The notes beneath the pieces were generated by a model. That model was given only the letters and a program-made list of their open reading frames with translations, was not told the DNA's origin and searched no databases. Both the position numbers and the translations under genes were made by a program. Source: Candidatus Woesearchaeota archaeon (GTDB taxonomy: Archaea > Nanobdellota > Nanobdellia > SCGC-AAA011-G17 > PNOQ01). Taken from it: a stretch of 64,000 nt of DNA. Below, one piece after another: positions 1,160 through 62,462 of this stretch. How positions within the stretch are numbered: the stretch's first letter is position 1; each line of letters opens with the position of its first letter. The stretch is from NCBI GenBank assembly GCA_964603065.1, contig CAZRTL010000006.1, forward strand, positions 84-64,083, given 5' to 3'.

Positions 1160-2428
1160 ATGGGAAAGAGTGTGATATTTGTAGTTTTGCTAATAATTAG
1201 TATTAGTTTAGTTTCTGCTAAAGTTATTGATATCCCCAAAGTTAAACAGGGAAAATTTTTACCAGAAAATATTCAAGAGGATTCTCCAATTGGAATAAAA
1301 AGGTATGTTTATGGTGGTAACTCTTTAGTTGCTTCTCAAGATAGTGAAGGAGTTAAATATTATCATCAAGATAGACTTTGGAGTAATAGAGTAATTACTG
1401 ATTCTTCTGGAAATAAAGATAGTGAGTTTTTGTCTTTGCCTTTTGGACAAGTAGTGATTGAAGGCATAGATTATAGTTTTACTGGAAAAGAGTTAGATTC
1501 TTCTGGATTATATTACTTTGGAGCTAGATATTATGATTCTAATTTGGGAAGGTTTTCTTCTAGGGATCCTGTTCCGAATGAATTACCTTATGCTTATGTT
1601 GGAAATAATCCTATGAATTTTATTGATCCTGATGGAATGGATAGATATTCTATGTTGGCAGGAGATAAATCTATTGTTGGGCATTATCTTACTCCAGTTC
1701 TTCCTTTTAATTATATCAAAGATGTTACTGGATCGACAACTCTTGGTGCTTTAGGAGGGATTGCTTTTATGTTGGGTCATGAATGGGGGGAATATACCAA
1801 TCCTGCGATGTATAATTTTCCTGGCACTATTCAAGGGGCAGGCTATAGTTTTGGTGAATACCTGAATAGTCCTGATACGAGAGAGGATTTAAGATTGGGG
1901 ATAATTGGTTTAGCTGTAGAAAGTTTGAATCTTCCGGTTTCAATTGAAACAGAATCTTTATTTTTATCTGGGCAAGATAATCCTTTGGCTGCTGCCCCTT
2001 ATAATGAAAGAGTTTTTTTCGGTTTAGAATCTGGGAGTATTGAGAATGAGGGTATGTCCTTGAGATTTGGTTTGGTTGCTGGGCATAATGAGCCTGTCGC
2101 TGATGATGCTTTGCCCCTTTCTCATGTTTATACAAATAGGGGAGTAGGATTTGGATTTAGTAGCTTGGGAAGCCATGGCCAGATTGGAGATGCTGGAGAC
2201 TTTTTAGGGTTAGGGATAAGAATAAAGAAAACTCTTTTTTCGATTGATAGTATTGGAGTGAGCTTTCCTGCTTATGGCTTGTTTAGTATTAATCAACCAA
2301 GAGAAGGTAGTTCTTATGGCCAGCTATCTGGAGGGGCCGGCATAGAATTTAATGATTGGGGTAGATTCCCTATACGCATGGTTTCTAGTGGTGATTCGAT
2401 AGGATTGGGTATTGGCGGAAGTTTTTAG
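1160..2428 (+). CDS. Secreted RHS-repeat-associated core domain protein with a Gly-rich C-terminal domain of unknown function (toxin-like cassette)
   Basis: N-terminal signal peptide. RHS core signature YYHQDRLWSNRVITDSSGN...PFGQ...FGARYYDSNLGRFSSRDPV..PYAYVGNNPMNFIDPDG. The RHS core is shared with 5139..6236; the C-terminal domain is different. Confidence 0.75.
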   Translation: MGKSVIFVVLLIISISLVSAKVIDIPKVKQGKFLPENIQEDSPIGIKRYVYGGNSLVASQDSEGVKYYHQDRLWSNRVITDSSGNKDSEFLSLPFGQVVIEGIDYSFTGKELDSSGLYYFGARYYDSNLGRFSSRDPVPNELPYAYVGNNPMNFIDPDGMDRYSMLAGDKSIVGHYLTPVLPFNYIKDVTGSTTLGALGGIAFMLGHEWGEYTNPAMYNFPGTIQGAGYSFGEYLNSPDTREDLRLGIIGLAVESLNLPVSIETESLFLSGQDNPLAAAPYNERVFFGLESGSIENEGMSLRFGLVAGHNEPVADDALPLSHVYTNRGVGFGFSSLGSHGQIGDAGDFLGLGIRIKKTLFSIDSIGVSFPAYGLFSINQPREGSSYGQLSGGAGIEFNDWGRFPIRMVSSGDSIGLGIGGSF

Positions 2429-12836: not shown

Positions 12837-14846
12837 CTATTTAAGCTTTTTTATTGGTAAAGTAAAATAAAATGTTGAACCCTTACCTAAAGTACTTTCA
12901 ACCCAAATTTTACCTCCATGTTGTTTTATTATTCCCCTACAAATACTTAAACCCAACCCAGTTCCCCCATATTTTCTAGTATAGCTAGATTCTAATTGAG
13001 TAAATGAATGAAATATTCTCTCACGATCTTTCTTAGATATTCCTATGCCCGTATCTTTTATTTTGACTAAAATATAATCTTTTTCTCTTTTAGCTTCAAT
13101 ATTTATTCCACCTTTATGTGTAAATTTAATGGCATTATCGATTAAATTAGTTAATATTTCTGTTATTCTTTTTTTGTCTGCCGTAATTAAGGGGAGGCTA
13201 TCTAATTTATAATCAAGTTCTAAACCTTTTTTCTCTGCTACTGGAGTCATACTTTTCACCACCAAGCCAACACAATCTCCCAATTGTATTTCACTAAGTT
13301 TTAGTTTAAACCCTTCTGCTTGTACCCTAGAGATTTCCAAAATATCTTCTATTAAGTCATTAAGACGGTTTATATTTCTAAGTATAATATCGAAACTCTT
13401 TTTTTGTTTTTCATTTAATTTTCCTAAATCTCCTTGTAATATCATTTGGGTTTGTATTTTTGCAGGAGTTAAAGGAGTTTTTAATTCATGGGAAGTTATA
13501 GTTAGAAATCTACTTTTTAGAACATCTAATTCTTTTAATTTTTTGTAAGATTCTTTTAATTTTTTTTCAGATTCCTTTTCTTTACTTATATCTCTCACTG
13601 TAGCTTGCAGTACTCCCTTGCCCAAGAGGTTCATTCTGGTTAATAAGACCGTTGCAGGGAAAACTTGTCCATCTAATCTTTTGTGATCCCATTCAAAAAG
13701 GTGTTTTCCTTTTTTCATTGCAGTATTTATCATTTCCATGGCTTTAGTGGAAGATAATTTTCCATCAGGTTGATTTTTTGGGGAATACTGCCAAGGAGCT
13801 TTAGATGTAAAATCTTTTTCATTTTTGGCTTTAAACATTTTTATTGTTGATGGATTTCCTGCGGTGAATTTCCATGTAGGGGGTTCTAAAATCATTATTG
13901 CATCGCTCGATGATTCGTACATTGTATTTGCTTTTTCATAAACTTCTTTTAATTTTCCTCGAGCTTGTCTTATTTCGGTAATATCCCTATCAATCCCCCT
14001 ATAACCTAGTAGTTTGCCTTTTGAATCTATAATAGGTACACCATTTGTTTCAAGTACAACAATTTTTCCATTTTTATGTTTATTTTTATTAATTAAACCA
14101 GAAAATGATTTTTTTAATTTTACAATGTTTGCAAATTCGGGGCCAAGCTTTTTAGCATCTTCCTTTGTCATTAAGTCGAAAGGAGTTTTCCCTATAATCT
14201 CTTTGGGGGAATACCCAAGTATATCTTTAATTTTTGGACTAGCGTATGTATAAGTGCCTTTCGCATTAACTTCCCAAATCCAATCAGAAGTAGATTCTAC
14301 TAGCCCCCTAAATTTTTCCTCACCTTCTCGTAATTTTATAGTTCTTTTCTTAATTTTGATTTCTAATTCTTCATGGGATTTTTTTAATTTTTTTTCTGCT
14401 TTTATTCTATCAGTAATGTCTGTATTAATTCCAACATATCCAGTAATTTCACCTTTGACATTTTTCAATGCTGCAGCAGTTCCATAAACCCAAGTTACTC
14501 TTTTTTTTCTATCTATTAGTCGGTACTCTGTCCCCCATTTACCTCCGGCCTTAACTGTTTTATACCAATTTTTCTCCACTTTTTTTCGATCATCTGGATG
14601 AATCCCATTTATCCACCCCTTTCCAAGAGTTTCTTTTATTGTTAATCCAGTCATATTACGCCAAAAAGTATTCACAAAAGTACAATTTCCTTTTTTATCA
14701 GTCATATAAATTGCTGAAGGAGAAGAAGAGATAAGTGTTTTGAATTTTTCTTCGCTTTCAATCAATTTTGCTTTTTCTTCTTCTAAATCTTCTAAAATAT
14801 TAAGCAGGGCCTCAGGTTTCAATAATAGATTTTTCTTGGATTTCAT
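12837..14846 (-). CDS. PAS-domain sensor histidine kinase
   Basis: Multiple PAS-like repeats. HisKA H-box ITSHELKTPLT. HATPase motifs DTGIGI and GGTGLGLSI. Confidence 0.85.
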   Translation of the reverse strand: MKSKKNLLLKPEALLNILEDLEEEKAKLIESEEKFKTLISSSPSAIYMTDKKGNCTFVNTFWRNMTGLTIKETLGKGWINGIHPDDRKKVEKNWYKTVKAGGKWGTEYRLIDRKKRVTWVYGTAAALKNVKGEITGYVGINTDITDRIKAEKKLKKSHEELEIKIKKRTIKLREGEEKFRGLVESTSDWIWEVNAKGTYTYASPKIKDILGYSPKEIIGKTPFDLMTKEDAKKLGPEFANIVKLKKSFSGLINKNKHKNGKIVVLETNGVPIIDSKGKLLGYRGIDRDITEIRQARGKLKEVYEKANTMYESSSDAIMILEPPTWKFTAGNPSTIKMFKAKNEKDFTSKAPWQYSPKNQPDGKLSSTKAMEMINTAMKKGKHLFEWDHKRLDGQVFPATVLLTRMNLLGKGVLQATVRDISKEKESEKKLKESYKKLKELDVLKSRFLTITSHELKTPLTPAKIQTQMILQGDLGKLNEKQKKSFDIILRNINRLNDLIEDILEISRVQAEGFKLKLSEIQLGDCVGLVVKSMTPVAEKKGLELDYKLDSLPLITADKKRITEILTNLIDNAIKFTHKGGINIEAKREKDYILVKIKDTGIGISKKDRERIFHSFTQLESSYTRKYGGTGLGLSICRGIIKQHGGKIWVESTLGKGSTFYFTLPIKKLK

Positions 14847-16225: not shown

Positions 16226-16303
16226 CTTTACCTCTTTTATTTAATATTTTATTTAAAAAGTATAAAAGCCTTACTATTCACCTAAAAAATCTAAATCGGA
16301 AAG

Positions 16304-16313
16304 TTTTTAAATA
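16304..16313 (+). promoter_or_regulatory. TATA-box-like element upstream of 5S rRNA
   Basis: tttttaaata lies about 25-30 nt upstream of the 5S 5' end. Confidence 0.35.
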
Positions 16314-16334
16314 GTGATTTATCTTGTTTTTCTA

Positions 16335-16446
16335 GGACGATCATAGTGGACTGGTCATACCCGAACTCATTTCGAACTCGGTAGTCAAGCAGTCTTACGT
16401 TCCTGATTGTACTGCATTGTTGTGCGGGAACTCAGGAAAGTTGTCC
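16335..16446 (+). rRNA. rrf: 5S rRNA
   Basis: GGACGATCATAGTGG...CATACCCGAACTCATTTCGAACTCGG.AGTCAAGC... matches archaeal 5S conserved blocks. The terminal helix GGACGA/TTGTCC closes. GC-rich island in AT-rich DNA. Confidence 0.85.
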
Positions 16447-16488
16447 TTTTTTCATTAATTTTATAAATTCTCATTTTAGTTTAGTTTT

Positions 16489-52672: not shown

Positions 52673-53379
52673 TTCTTAAGAAAATAAAATGCAGGGAACA
52701 GGACTCGAACCTGCGTAGGCACTAAGCCATCAGGTTTCTTATATGGAAATATCCTAAGCCTGACCCGTTTGACCACTCCGGCATCCCTGCATATTTTTTC
52801 TAACTTTTTAATATTTTTTAAAGGTATCGTTTTGAGAAAATTATTTACTGATGATTTTTTTATTCGAATACCATAATATTCTTTTTGATATTTTTTATTT
52901 ATCCAAGAATCTATTGTATTTTCTATTTTTATTGAATTCAAATATTGATTTATTTCAGTAATGATTTGCTTACTTGCACTACAATATCCTATACTATTTC
53001 TCCTAATTCCTCCATCTGTGTCAAACAACCCTCCTAAGAAATATTTTGTTTGTTCTTTGGTTAAATTTTTTGGAATAATTATTTTGTCTGATTTTTTGCC
53101 TAATGGAATTTTAAATTCTTTATTGAAGAAAGTATATAATTTTTTGTTTCTTATTGAAATATAATAGGCTCTCTTTCCTTGTTTAATTGATGTTTTTGTA
53201 TTTACTTTTTCTTTTATTAATTTGAGAATTAATTCTAAATATTTTTTATTATTTGAATGAATAAATATTCCATAATCAGGAGAATTATCTTTATCTTTCC
53301 ATTTAACGCCCCCTTTTAGATGACCATCTCCAGCTATTACGCCTGCCAAATATATTAAATCATTATCAAGTTTGAACAT
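52669..53379 (-). CDS. LAGLIDADG homing endonuclease-like protein. The ORF reads through the whole co-oriented tRNA-Leu(TAG) gene.
   Basis: LAGVIAGDGHL and FLGGLFDTDGGI. The last 40 or so codons are translation of the tRNA sequence. Confidence 0.7.
   Translation of the reverse strand: MFKLDNDLIYLAGVIAGDGHLKGGVKWKDKDNSPDYGIFIHSNNKKYLELILKLIKEKVNTKTSIKQGKRAYYISIRNKKLYTFFNKEFKIPLGKKSDKIIIPKNLTKEQTKYFLGGLFDTDGGIRRNSIGYCSASKQIITEINQYLNSIKIENTIDSWINKKYQKEYYGIRIKKSSVNNFLKTIPLKNIKKLEKICRDAGVVKRVRLRIFPYKKPDGLVPTQVRVLFPAFYFLKN
52689..52789 (-). tRNA. tRNA-Leu(TAG) with 17-nt bulge-helix-bulge intron at 37/38
   Basis: Acceptor GCAGGGA/TCCCTGC, anticodon stem TCAGG/CCTGA, loop CTTAGG|intron ATATTTCCATATAAGAA|A. 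The bulge-helix-bulge geometry is canonical (CTTA/TAAG helix, 3-nt bulges). Confidence 0.75.
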
Positions 53380-56446: not shown

Positions 56447-56824
56447 ATGGTAGAGCAGCTATTAAATTTAATTGAAAGAGGAGAGCATTTAAATATTTTA
56501 AGGAGCCAAGGTAGAAAGGCAATACTTAGAGAAGAAATTGCTAAGAGGGTGGCTAGATTGAAAAACCAAAGTAGTATTTTGGAAGGCCGTTTGGAGTTAG
56601 TTTCTGCAGATATGAATCCTATTAATAGTTTCAGAGAGAGAATGTATACTGTAACATTTAAATCTGAAGGGAATAAAGAACATATATTCAATATTCCTTT
56701 GGTAGATTGGGAAGATTCCTATAGGAGTAAATTACTTAACGGTGCTGCCGATGTGAAAATTGTTTACAGGGGACAAGAAGGAAAACATTATTGGCCTCTG
56801 ATAGAAAGAATTGATTTTCTTTAA
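56447..56824 (+). CDS. hypothetical protein
   Basis: ORF only. Confidence 0.3.
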   Translation: MVEQLLNLIERGEHLNILRSQGRKAILREEIAKRVARLKNQSSILEGRLELVSADMNPINSFRERMYTVTFKSEGNKEHIFNIPLVDWEDSYRSKLLNGAADVKIVYRGQEGKHYWPLIERIDFL

Positions 56825-57822
56825 TTCCAATCTACTTCCACTTGGTCAGTTCTTTGATAGGGATATATTTGAGGATTAGTTTTTTTAAGTTTATTTCTTC
56901 CTTTATACATCAAATATCCAGTTAAAGCAATCATTGCTGCATTGTCTACTAAGTATGGTATTTCTGGAATGAAGCATTTGGCTCCTCTTTCTTTTGCCAT
57001 TATTTTTGACATTTCTTGAAGTCTAGAATTACATGCAACTCCTCCGCCTAGTGCGAGCTCTTTTTTATTACAGTGTGCCATTGCCCTTTCCGATACTTCT
57101 AATAGCATAGCAAAAGTGGTTTCCTGTAAAGAATAAGCTAACTCTTCTGTCTTGTATTTTTTTGAATCGTACAAATGTTTTAGTTTTGTTAACATTCCAG
57201 TAAATGAAATATCCATTCCTTTAACGGAGTAAGGCAATTCTATATAATTGTGAGATTTTTCAGCTAGTTTTGAGATTTTTGGTCCACCGGGAAAACCAAG
57301 CCCCATATATCTTGCAAATGAATCCAGAAAATTTCCAACTCCTTGATCCAGAGTTTCTCCAAATATTCTATACTTTCCTTCATCAAAAGCTATAATTTGA
57401 GTATTTGCTCCTGAAGTGTATAGAAGAACTGGATCTTTCGCCTTTGTTACTATTTTGGTAATTTCTAAGTGTGCTATACAATGATTTACTTCTATAAAAG
57501 GAAGTTTAAGTTCTTCAACTAATTCTTTTCCAACTCTTAGGCAAGGTCCTAATCCAGGTCCTGCAGAATATGCTATAAAATCGATATCCTCTAGTTTTAT
57601 TTTTGCTGTTTCTAATGCTTCTTTTAGTAATTTATCTTTATGTTTTTCGTGATGTTTGGCGGCCTTTATTGGAATGATTCCGCCTTTTTCTGTTGTGAAA
57701 GTTCTTTTTAGATTGCACAATACTTTAGGGCCTTTTGTTATTGCGATTCCGAAAGTATCTCAGCAGAATTAATCTAGAGCTGTACTTTCGATACCAAGGA
57801 TTATTGGATTTTCTTTTTCCAT
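56821..57822 (-). CDS. kae1: tRNA N6-adenosine threonylcarbamoyltransferase Kae1 (KEOPS), coding sequence interrupted by a predicted 18-nt bulge-helix-bulge intron (exons 57777..57822 and 56821..57758)
   Basis: Exon 1 (MEKENPIILGIESTA) sits at the end of the upstream ORF. Exon 2 (…TFGIAITKGPKVLCNLKRTFTTEKGGIIPIKAAKHH…GPGLGPCLRVG…VNHCIAHLEI) is the supplied 299-aa ORF. They are in the same frame, separated by TAA..TGA. The predicted splice gives a 327-aa Kae1. Confidence 0.7.
57759..57776 (-). other. Predicted bulge-helix-bulge intron inside kae1 mRNA (UAGAUUAAUUCUGCUGAG)
   Basis: Exon-exon helix GAAAGUA/UACUUUC. Central 4-bp helix CAGC/GCUG. 3-nt bulges UC|U (5' site) and AG|A (3' site). Intronic mini-hairpin AGA-UUAAU-UCU. 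Removal restores the frame and yields …ESTAHTFGIAI…. Confidence 0.6.
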
Positions 57823-59007
57823 CTTTGATTTTTGCATTCTTTTGTATATCCCGCCTTGCCTTATTATTATGTTATGTTCATCTAATATCCTTTTTATAAT
57901 TTTTGTTGAGGATAAATTTTGTTCTAAACAACTATTGACCTTAGTTCCTAACCATTTTGGCCAGTGATGCGGCAGTTTCTCTGCGTTGATTATTTTTTCC
58001 ATTAATTGATATCGATAAGACTGTACCATTGGATTAAACAATGGGAGAGAATATGCATCTTCTAATCTTATTTTTACTTGTTGCATAGTTTTTTTATGTA
58101 AATTTCCTATATTAGATTGTATGTTTAATGAGTCAAATATTTTTTGGATAAATTCTGCATTTGGTTTTGTGACTATCCCCGCCCTATATTGAGTTATATC
58201 TATATATCCATCACTATCTGCAATCCCCTGTAAGAAACTTATTTTGAATTGTTTTGGAGCTTTTAATATCCAATCTGATTTTATTTTATCATAGCTTGTA
58301 AGTTCAGTATTTTTTAGCCCTAAACAAACCTTGAATGCCCAATCGATTAACGGAGAGCATTGGGAATGCCATGCATAAAAATCATGTGGGTTTCTTTTTC
58401 CTTTTGGGCAGTTTTTTGTTCTGTTTATTTTAATTCCTAAGGATTTCAAACAATGAGATGCATACTTTCCGAAATTTAAGTTGGTTTTGAATTTGGTAGT
58501 CAATCTTAACTGGATTCTCCTTGTAACCTTATTTTTTCTTTTTATTCCATGTTTTGATGCGTCCCCAACCATTATCCCAAGGATGTACCCTAATTCTTTT
58601 TCAATATTTTTTGAATTTAGTTGGGACAAAACATTAGTTATATCAGAATATTTATTGATTTTCTCAGGAACATTAATCCATGGTCCAGTTTGTATTCCCC
58701 CTCTTGTTGAATTAATTGATAATATTTTTTTATTTGGTTTTAGTTGATTGTAGTAGTTCAGGTAGTGTGCAATACATGGGATAGATTCTTCTCGAAACCA
58801 TTTAGTTATTGTGAATTTGGAAACATTTATGATTTTTGAGATTTTATTGACCGGCATTTTTCTATTTCTTAATCTATACGCTTTTAAGAATAATTTTAAT
58901 GTTTCTTTTTCTTTATTTGAAAAACTTGTCCCCCAGAAAATATTTAAAAATGTTAAATCTTTTACTTTTTTATCGTTTGATAACTTTATTATCTCTTCTG
59001 TTTTCAT
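57823..59007 (-). CDS. LAGLIDADG homing endonuclease-like protein with N-terminal HTH, in frame with and not separated by a stop from kae1 exon 1
   Basis: LAGLIDADG motifs LGYILGIMVGDASK and FLQGIADSDGYIDI. HTH ISKIINVSKFTITKWF. Confidence 0.65.
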
Positions 59008-59016
59008 ATCTACTTA

Positions 59017-59460
59017 TTGAATTTTATCTTTATAAACTCTTTTTGTGTACTTGACAACATAGTTTTACATTCTTTAATTCCAAGAATTATTGGATTTTTC
59101 ATATATTTTTATTTTTTAATAAGACTTATAAATTGTTTTGTTTTCCCTATTTTTATGGAAACAAAAAGAAAAAATATATTATTTGAAAATATGAGGAAAG
59201 AACTTGAGTCTTCGGGTTTAGTCCAAGTTGTGGCCTCTCAAAGTTTTTTAAGAGGAGTTCATAATTGCAATGCCGAAGGAGTTATTTGTATAAATTATAA
59301 AAATCCTGAAACTACCCTTGGAGATGTTAGAAGTTTTTTAGATAGGGAAGGAGATTTAGAAAGTAAAGGGAATGGAGAGTTGGTTTATCAAGTAAATTAT
59401 GTAGAGAGACACTCTTCTGGATATGATAAAGTTGTAGTTAGAGAAATATTTCCCAAATAA
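59017..59460 (+). CDS. hypothetical protein
   Basis: ORF only. The real start may be the internal METKRK. Confidence 0.3.
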   Translation: MNFIFINSFCVLDNIVLHSLIPRIIGFFIYFYFLIRLINCFVFPIFMETKRKNILFENMRKELESSGLVQVVASQSFLRGVHNCNAEGVICINYKNPETTLGDVRSFLDREGDLESKGNGELVYQVNYVERHSSGYDKVVVREIFPK

Positions 59461-62346: not shown

Positions 62347-62462
62347 GAGCCCGTAGCTTAGCCTGGTTTATAGCACTGGTCTTATATGACGGTTGCTGAT
62401 TTAGGTCAGTAGCTTGCTAAGAACACCAGAGGTCGGGGGTTCAAATCCCCTCGGGCTCACCA
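62347..62462 (+). tRNA. tRNA-Ile(TAT) with 37-nt bulge-helix-bulge intron at 37/38 and encoded CCA
   Basis: Acceptor GAGCCCG/CGGGCTC, anticodon stem CTGGT/ACCAG, loop CTTATA|intron|C. The bulge-helix-bulge is canonical (CTTA/TAAG helix, bulges TA|T and AA|C, intronic helix GAC/GTC). T arm GGGGG-TTCAAAT-CCCCT. CCA lies at 62460..62462. Confidence 0.7.

Follow-up and report, generated by a model that had tools for sequence, protein, structure and literature searches.

A probable bulge-helix-bulge mini-intron in the kae1 gene of a woesearchaeal archaeon, likely part of a cassette with an adjacent LAGLIDADG endonuclease gene

Bulge-helix-bulge (BHB) introns, recognized by a 4-bp central helix between two 3-nt bulges on opposite strands (PMC7714728), have been documented within the coding sequence of one gene, cbf5 of Crenarchaeota, where the intron measures 16-44 bp and is "too short to encode such a nuclease" (PMC2738675). 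A further BHB intron lies in the 5' untranslated region (UTR) of Haloferax HVO_1309, in a report that states cbf5 to be the only other mRNA example (PMC7714728). How short introns of this kind, devoid of an open reading frame (ORF), are gained is an open question, since they are too small to hold a mobility gene. Here we describe a stretch of 64,000 nt from Candidatus Woesearchaeota archaeon (GCA_964603065.1, contig CAZRTL010000006.1, positions 84 to 64,083; hereafter the window), in which the kae1 gene is interrupted by an 18-nt insert that appears, by every feature testable in silico, to be a genuine BHB intron in a new gene and a new lineage. A LAGLIDADG endonuclease gene lies directly upstream, and the locus as a whole is probably best explained by a mini-intron, spliced by the tRNA splicing endonuclease EndA, that forms part of a homing cassette of an architecture not described for BHB introns.

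In collaborative homing, an endonuclease gene lies next to an intron that has no ORF of its own, as for F-CphI, a free-standing enzyme whose gene neighbours a group I intron in psbA of cyanophages (Zeng, Bonocora and Shub 2009, outlined in PMC6083498); T4 mobE / I-TevIII is a further example (PMC2790892). A literature search turned up no report that couples a BHB intron to a free-standing endonuclease, and none of a coding-sequence BHB intron in kae1 or in DPANN archaea, in agreement with the novelty that a preliminary description of the window had claimed for the insert.

The minus strand carries kae1, as well as the features described below unless another strand is given. Its ATG (57822..57820) opens an exon 1 of 15 codons plus the C of a His codon (57822..57777), which encodes MEKENPIILGIESTA and ends GCU C. 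The mini-intron (57776..57759; RNA 5'-UAGAUUAAUUCUGCUGAG-3') follows codon 15, and exon 2 (57758..56821), which begins AU ACU UUC GGA, extends from the AU of the same His codon to the stop codon. Read in the frame of exon 1, the insert is CTA GAT TAA TTC TGC TGA G and thus contains two stops, so that the N-terminus and the remainder of Kae1 are split as the preliminary description had proposed. Public gene calls (P0001, P0161) use an internal TTG start instead (56821..57720) and yield 299 rather than 327 amino acids.

The unconstrained minimum free energy (MFE) fold of 57815..57735 (dG -16.5 kcal/mol) is exactly the BHB suggested earlier, with the same helices, bulges and hairpin. The complete motif (57791..57749), identified by this fold, by the folds of individual alleles and by covariation, consists of a 9-bp outer exon-exon helix (UCGAAAGUA/UACUUUCGG; 57791..57783 with 57757..57749), a central helix (CAGC 57782..57779 with GCUG 57764..57761), a 5' bulge UCU (57778..57776) and a 3' bulge AGA (57760..57758), and an inner hairpin in which AGA (57775..57773) and UCU (57767..57765) enclose the loop UUAAU (57772..57768). 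The window allele therefore has the 4-bp helix and the two opposed 3-nt bulges of the BHB definition given above.

Removal of exactly 18 nt restores the reading frame and gives a Kae1 of 327 amino acids, as had been predicted (Pfam TsaD, E = 1e-75). The alignment of this product with P. abyssi Kae1 (2ivn; E = 2e-109) begins at residue 3 and continues through LGIEsTAHTfGI. The junction of the product reads ...ESTAHTFG..., rebuilding the conserved N-terminal block. The predicted spliced RNA junction is GTACAGCTC-ATACTTTCGG (GCUC-AUACU), corresponding to ATCGAAAGTACAGCTCATACTTTCGGA in DNA and to the predicted junction peptide ESTAHTFGIAITK. Cleavage after the second base of each bulge (NN|N) is the sole register that rebuilds the His codon; shifting both cuts by +1 or -1 replaces Ala-His-Thr with Ala-Leu-Thr or Ala-Asp-Thr (direct reading).

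The same geometry is found in two intron-containing tRNAs of the window, which had been pointed out before and which Rfam detects and ARAGORN misses. In tRNA-Leu(UAG) (52690..52790), where Rfam, sequence and fold agree, a 17-nt intron occupies the canonical 37/38 position and is arranged as anticodon stem, CUUA-UAAG helix, bulges GGA and AAA, and a UAU-UUCC-AUA hairpin; this succession of outer helix, 4-bp helix, 3-nt bulges and 3-bp hairpin matches the kae1 insert in layout and size, and the canonical position of the intron fixes the NN|N cleavage rule independently of kae1. The second, a tRNA with anticodon UAU (62347..62459, plus strand; Rfam and sequence), has a 37-nt intron, and its central helix is likewise CUUA/UAAG. 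The window also contains an archaeal SRP RNA.

Related loci were collected from species-representative genomes with the spliced Kae1 as probe, and by a metagenome scan with the endonuclease family described below. An interrupted kae1 was found in 30 loci with 22 distinct junctions, all at the same codon. The nearest database entry to the spliced Kae1 is the window's own 299-residue call (P0001), and the next entries (91-77% identity) are full-length, with an uninterrupted ...ESTAHTFG.... Loci L001-L003 (83-87% Kae1 identity) carry 18 nt identical to those of the window, and in L006 (71%) the same codon is broken by 18 nt of another sequence, the central helix being CUGC/GCAG. The inserts of L027/L028 (17 nt) and L029 (16 nt) leave the exons out of frame unless they are removed. 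Across the 22 junctions the insert is 13, 14, 15, 16, 17, 18, 19, 20 or 29 nt long, with no preference for multiples of three (remainders of 0, 1 and 2 in six, eight and eight alleles, respectively); an exon-1-frame stop occurs 3-15 nt into every one of them, and exon 2 is an intact full-length ORF in alleles down to ∼45% Kae1 identity. Regardless of insert length, cuts placed in silico at the bulge positions (NN|N) restore (I/V)E(S/G)TAHT(F/L)(G/S), with its split His codon, in 22 of 22 alleles. The inserts are far too short, and lack any Rfam intron match, to be self-splicing introns. An apparent 500-nt insertion in kae1 of L015 was considered as an intron and rejected: the gene is intact there, and a duplicate of its C-terminal part follows downstream. 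At that locus the last ∼19 kae1 codons (LRLTKPKIYPYQRTDQVEI) recur ∼450 nt 3' of the intact kae1 (1748..1804), possibly as a relic of a displaced 3' gene end.

Pairing is maintained across these alleles. The central helix is fully paired (4/4) in all 22 junctions and present in the MFE fold of 20, and the outer helix retains 8-9 of its 9 pairs; in 16 uninterrupted alleles, the same exon segments are merely 4-7/9 complementary. Covariation was counted on a trimmed, in-register alignment (A2) of 19 distinct rows, in which 98.4% of cells pair versus 32-47% with slid partners, and in which the covariation score (0.197 versus 0.103 when shuffled) was reached in 0 of 500 shuffles. The variable pair of the central helix (12-20), which joins the wobble base of a Thr codon to an intron base, is U-A in ten rows, C-G in five and A-U in four, and is never unpaired. 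Three pairs in all change on both sides, the other two being the outer-helix pairs 3-32 (CG to UA) and 6-29, where A-U is replaced by G-C in L039/L040/L095 at the cost of an F-to-L substitution. Taken with the frame-independent insert lengths, this makes it very probable that the insert is removed at the RNA level through the BHB.

Two readings that dispense with splicing fare poorly against these data. A dead kae1 gene, or an error of 18 nt, would account for the two in-frame stops and for the automated calls cut to 299 amino acids. The same structure, however, recurs in independent JGI, ENA, NCBI and Logan assemblies, both exons are intact and conserved in 22 diverged alleles, and changes in the helices are compensatory; kae1 is, moreover, a universal gene of the t6A pathway. 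The comparative data exclude a pseudogene and an assembly error, as well as a tolerated in-frame insertion, and we regard this reading as effectively refuted. Translational recoding, in which the ribosome would bypass or frameshift over the insert as in the hopping of phage T4 gene 60, is only marginally more credible. A stop just after the break and a hairpin, both found here, are features of the gene 60 bypass, and archaeal cbf5 introns were initially confused with frameshifting (PMC2738675). On the other hand, the matched take-off and landing codons of a gene 60-type bypass are missing (GCU C|... versus ...|AU ACU), and hopping could not reassemble a conserved His codon that is divided C|AU. 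Different recoding events would also have to be invoked for inserts that range from 13 to 29 nt and fall into all three length classes, and conservation and covariation act on the BHB geometry, exon-intron helix included.

The preliminary description of the insert was not wrong, but it was incomplete, having missed an endonuclease ORF, a relic of kae1 further upstream and the larger, apparently mobile cassette to which they belong. A 412-residue LAGLIDADG ORF (59007..57769) continues without a change of frame across the kae1 start and exon 1, terminating at a UAA inside the intron (57771..57769). Its last 17 residues are MEKENPIILGIESTALD; the segment MEKENPIILGIESTA, previously described as the Kae1 N-terminus, is thus indeed encoded by kae1 exon 1, but rather than being free-standing it is also the in-frame tail of the endonuclease ORF. 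The intron itself holds only the last three codons and the stop of this ORF, which starts 1.2 kb upstream. A TTTATAAA box (59036..59029) lies 22 nt 5' of the endonuclease ATG, and an equivalent box with the same spacing is found in most related loci, suggesting a promoter proper to the endonuclease gene. About half of the endonuclease family ends in ...LGIESTA(L/Q/H), i.e. runs into kae1 exon 1; this in-frame run is confined to the window's clade (L001-3, L006, L029-32, L034-37, L055). With the frame open through exon 1 and closed in the intron, unspliced RNA would encode a free endonuclease, and spliced RNA an endonuclease-Kae1 fusion of ∼722 residues.

The contiguity and shared orientation of the two genes raise the alternative that EndA cuts without subsequent ligation, either separating the endonuclease cistron from kae1 or regulating mRNA stability, with Kae1 being made without exon 1. 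BHB processing without exon joining occurs in rRNA precursors, and the 5'-UTR BHB intron of Haloferax affects expression (PMC7714728). This alternative is nonetheless very improbable, if less so than recoding: exon 1 encodes the conserved LGIE(S/G)TAH that can be aligned to solved Kae1 structures, every allele keeps a Met 10-17 codons (21 in L042) ahead of the intron, the His codon is rebuilt exactly in each of the 22 alleles at any insert length, and exon 2 would begin without a start codon.

The 412-residue protein (Pfam LAGLIDADG_3, E = 3e-7) has an N-terminal region resembling a helix-turn-helix (HTH) followed by a two-domain LAGLIDADG part, and belongs to a tiny family, with 40 clusters among 5.8 billion proteins; public records leave it unnamed or hypothetical, or in some cases call it an XRE-type regulator. 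In an alignment of 30 sequences, G144, G148 and D149 of the first LAGLIDADG helix and Q260, G261, D264, S265, D266 and G267 of the second are invariant, including the acidic residues that end both helices (D149 and D266, the catalytic Asp). Its AlphaFold (AF2) model (pLDDT 90.5, pTM 0.87) predicts the two-domain alpha-beta-beta-alpha-beta-beta-alpha fold of LAGLIDADG enzymes, the tail encoded by exon 1 being the only disordered segment. The best Foldseek matches are I-DmoI (TM 0.69-0.73, target-normalised) and I-Tsp061I, which belong to BHB introns of archaeal rRNA genes, with WhiA and the bI3 maturase also among the matches; at the sequence level, similarity to these two enzymes of rRNA introns is not significant (profile E = 0.11 for I-DmoI). 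More distant relatives (L056-L109; at most 32% identity) lie on higher-GC contigs, neither beside kae1 nor inside rRNA genes, and an Rfam search of 18 such loci for an rRNA-intron context detected no rRNA.

Endonuclease and intron tend to occur together. Wherever sufficient downstream DNA is available (24 loci), relatives of 36% identity or more lie directly 5' of kae1, and kae1 is interrupted in 22, and uninterrupted in three, of the 25 endonuclease-probed loci whose junction could be read. Among the loci found with Kae1 as probe, a sample unbiased with respect to the endonuclease, and counting those with at least 1 kb upstream, the endonuclease precedes 5/5 interrupted and 0/15 uninterrupted alleles. 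In L027/L028 (1..330), only a frameshifted, stop-riddled remnant of the endonuclease is left (...SSTKIINNALEKY...), alongside an intact 17-nt intron with intact helices, as might be expected late in a homing cycle. Empty sites are found among close relatives: P0002 (91% Kae1 identity) and L025 (87%) have neither endonuclease nor intron, share downstream synteny with the window (TFIIB, S8e, LSM, L37e), and have only ∼50 nt between kae1 and a divergent gene of 104 amino acids.

A comparison with the empty-site alleles at the DNA level, for which L025 and L026 were used, reveals what was inserted. The uninterrupted site of the L025 type is ATAGAATCAACTGCACACACTTTCGGA. The divergent gene upstream of the endonuclease in the window (59017..59460, plus strand) is the ortholog of the gene directly upstream of kae1 in L025 (52% identity, E = 3e-31) and marks a conserved syntenic boundary of the insertion. 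A collinear alignment with L025 covers the intergenic region, the TATA box and the first 11 kae1 codons, pairing the L025 start (ATG AAA ACA CCA ACA ATT TTA GGA ATA GAA T) with a stretch of the window (59133..59069) that comprises a TATA-like box (59133..59125) and ATG AAA AAT CCA ATA ATT CTT GGA ATT (AAA) GAA T (59102..59069). The window has therefore retained the original promoter of kae1 and its first 11 codons, displaced upstream of the endonuclease gene. This relic opens an ORF of 30 codons (59102.., 30 aa; MKNPIILGI...) and ends ∼9 nt short of the intron insertion site, an indirect hint that the endonuclease may cut there; in L003 and L030 the distal TATA-like box is kept and the ATG...GGAATT part has been lost. 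Relative to the empty allele, the added DNA is a 1.3-kb block that comprises the endonuclease gene and its putative promoter together with a substitute start and exon 1 for kae1 and with the mini-intron. Two other accounts of the arrangement were rejected. A large intron that would start in the relic exon (59102..) and end at the 3' splice site is disfavored as, by inspection, the relic's UCAAGUACAC can form only 5 + 2 of the 9 + 4 pairs with the 3' side and L003/L030 lack the relic ATG; an intein is excluded as the relic exon and the endonuclease ORF are in different frames with stops between them, and Pfam finds no Hint domain. A CAAGTAC block (59043..59051), conserved directly 5' of the endonuclease TATA box here and in L002, L003, L030 and L006, resembles the end of kae1 exon 1 (GAAAGTAC) and may be either another, older relic or an element with a function.

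Sequence identity around the junction is also mosaic. The window and L003 are 75-80% (∼78%) identical along the endonuclease gene and kae1, yet a tract of ∼240 nt (roughly 57958..57720) with exon 1 and the intron at its centre is 100% identical. The endonuclease segment of this tract is merely 75% identical between the window and L030, so universal constraint does not explain the identity. We interpret the relic as an invasion scar and the identity tract as a conversion tract. An optional, patchy presence combined with signs of gene conversion or decay is what characterizes homing endonucleases, and it is fairly likely that the endonuclease makes, or once made, the cassette mobile.

These observations can be assembled into a model. 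In the kae1 pre-mRNA, exon-1 codons 9-13 would pair with exon-2 codons 17-19 to form the 9-bp helix, and CAGC at the end of exon 1 with GCUG at the 3' end of the intron, exposing two 3-nt bulges; EndA would cut each bulge after its second base and an RtcB-type ligase would join the exons, rebuilding the split His codon (C|AU) and hence a normal 327-residue Kae1. The mini-intron would constitute the right-hand end of a 1.3-kb cassette, consisting of the free-standing LAGLIDADG gene with its own promoter, the replacement kae1 start and exon 1, and the intron, whose insertion at the kae1 site would have moved the promoter and first codons of the original gene upstream, where they form the relic. 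The endonuclease is predicted to recognize and cut uninterrupted kae1 at or near ...GAAAGTAC.GC.CATACTTTC...; this putative target is also pseudo-palindromic as DNA, owing to the inverted repeat behind the RNA helix. Repair of the break from a cassette-bearing allele would copy the cassette in, and the mini-intron would split the recognition site and protect its carrier, with RNA splicing keeping the essential kae1 gene functional. The whole scheme would amount to collaborative homing with a BHB intron. That the intron acts as a target-site breaker in this way is the least certain step, for which we see about even chances.

Several observations weigh against this interpretation. Considered on its own, the fold of the window allele is unremarkable: its z-score is modest (z = -2.24; 3/200 shuffles of 57815..57735 equally good), and a scan for the motif by itself (two 3-nt bulges with a 4-bp helix and an 8-bp outer helix) yields six copies in the window versus ∼7.7 in composition-matched simulations, i.e. 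chance frequency, so that the kae1 fold alone is not significant. Of the six, the copy in kae1 is the only one to fall on an interrupted reading frame, and the comparative evidence across alleles places it far beyond chance. (Another of these chance-level motifs, at 16273..16315, adjoins a 5S rRNA gene on the opposite strand, 16333..16449, plus.) Since the 22 alleles are related, fewer independent events underlie the covariation than its counts suggest, and the register of alignment A2 was set using the proposed structure. The inner hairpin has 3 bp in the window allele, is longer (4-7 bp) in L036, L037, L046, L048 and L055, and is weak or absent in about half of the alleles, which would then be relaxed bulge-helix-loop forms whose cleavage depends on an EndA of broad specificity; DPANN EndAs with an L3 loop reportedly accompany disrupted tRNA genes (PMC5829648), which makes cleavage of such alleles plausible. 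Neither EndA nor RtcB was found within the 64-kb window, where the sole motif-like match to an EndA probe (14508..14555) was rejected as a PAS histidine kinase; the two intron-containing tRNAs imply a splicing machinery in the host. An exact look-up of the 327-residue spliced protein returned no record in any public assembly.

With regard to homing, a search for viral carriers of the endonuclease family found none, endonuclease and Kae1 diverge roughly in parallel, which fits long vertical co-inheritance, and three loci carry an uninterrupted kae1 directly 3' of the endonuclease gene (L051, 2385..2534; L052, 1341..1490; L054, 1444..1593). The endonucleases of these three belong to a more distant clade (36-38% identity) and keep the catalytic Asp, and in L051 and L054 the stop of the endonuclease overlaps the start of kae1 (ATGA / TAATG). 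The intron is thus not required to carry the endonuclease gene, and the association is not strictly intron-dependent; immunity may also come from divergence of the target site.

The parallel divergence and the three loci without an intron also favor the main alternative, in which the BHB intron is real and the LAGLIDADG protein has been domesticated, is no longer or never was a mobility factor, and is inherited vertically together with the intron, serving as a WhiA-like transcriptional regulator or as a maturase-like helper of BHB folding or splicing. Endonuclease ORFs remain intact where Kae1 is only 45-50% identical, the layout is operon-like, with overlapping stop and start or an in-frame run into exon 1, JGI labels some members XRE-type regulators in keeping with the HTH-like N-terminus, and the fold matches include precisely a regulator (WhiA) and a maturase (bI3). 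WhiA-type regulators, however, have lost the catalytic acidic residues, both of which are invariant in the 30 aligned sequences; the best fold matches are active intron endonucleases, the distribution is patchy among close relatives, and the relic, the mosaic tract and the decayed copy in L027/L028 are predicted by a homing cycle and not by a fixed regulator. We therefore consider domestication unlikely, though it is the strongest competitor of the homing cassette.

If the homing cassette is real, very short BHB introns can be mobile: a free-standing LAGLIDADG gene and a 13-29-nt EndA-spliced intron would act as one unit, the intron breaking the enzyme's own target in an essential gene and the tRNA-splicing machinery paying the cost, with splicing in the window's clade also deciding between a free endonuclease and an endonuclease-Kae1 fusion, and hence potentially acting as a switch. 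We hold this generalization to be about as likely as not. The locus suggests a testable mechanism for the gain of ORF-less BHB introns of the cbf5 type and, by extension, of tRNA mini-introns. As a second coding-sequence case, with 22 covarying alleles, kae1 is also a good substrate for studying how EndA recognizes mRNA. A practical consequence is that the truncation of kae1 in public annotation (299 versus 327 residues) leads to mis-scoring of a t6A enzyme in genome completeness estimates and metabolic reconstructions of these lineages.

Among described systems, the cbf5 intron (Watanabe 2002; Yokobori 2009, PMC2738675) is the closest to the kae1 insert itself. Both are short BHB introns (16-44 bp versus 13-29 nt) in the coding sequence of an RNA-modification enzyme, are presumed to be cleaved by the tRNA splicing endonuclease, are patchily distributed among relatives, and have been mis-annotated as split or frameshifted genes. 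They differ in gene, in lineage (DPANN of the Woesearchaeota/Nanoarchaeota type in the case of kae1) and in position (codon 16 of kae1), and in that a LAGLIDADG gene lies 46 nt upstream of the 5' splice site of kae1, whereas cbf5 has no linked nuclease; splicing of cbf5 has been demonstrated experimentally, whereas that of kae1 is predicted from sequence.

With the archaeal rRNA BHB-intron enzymes I-DmoI, I-Tsp061I and I-PorI, the kae1-linked endonuclease shares a monomeric two-domain LAGLIDADG core (TM about 0.7 for I-DmoI), an archaeal host and an association with a BHB intron. Those enzymes are encoded inside their introns, in contrast to the kae1-linked ORF, which begins about 1.2 kb upstream of a 13-29-nt intron in a protein-coding host gene and specifies a protein about twice as long, with the extra HTH-like N-terminal region and a C-terminal helical extension.

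In the C-terminal duplication of Allomyces mitochondrial atp6, a mobile endonuclease ORF carries a replacement gene end. There, as at kae1, insertion leaves a displaced, decaying gene end for which the element supplies a functional substitute; the Allomyces element is organellar, affects the 3' end and has no intron, while the kae1 cassette affects the 5' end and has a BHB mini-intron at the junction.

The overall arrangement most closely recalls collaborative homing. As the F-CphI/psbA system is outlined in PMC6083498, an ORF-less intron in a conserved gene has an endonuclease gene beside it, the intron being proposed to break the target and the enzyme to mobilise the intron; at kae1, too, the endonuclease gene lies outside, and adjacent to, a gene whose intron lacks an ORF. 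The known systems involve self-splicing group I introns of phages and enzymes of the Endo VII/HNH type, compared with a presumably protein-spliced intron, a cellular archaeon and a LAGLIDADG enzyme of predicted specificity at kae1, where the cassette, unlike those systems, also carries a replacement 5' exon. Since all described cases of collaborative homing rely on group I introns, a class to which inserts of 13-29 nt without an Rfam intron match do not belong, the kae1 cassette would, by analogy, work like collaborative homing while standing outside the described set.

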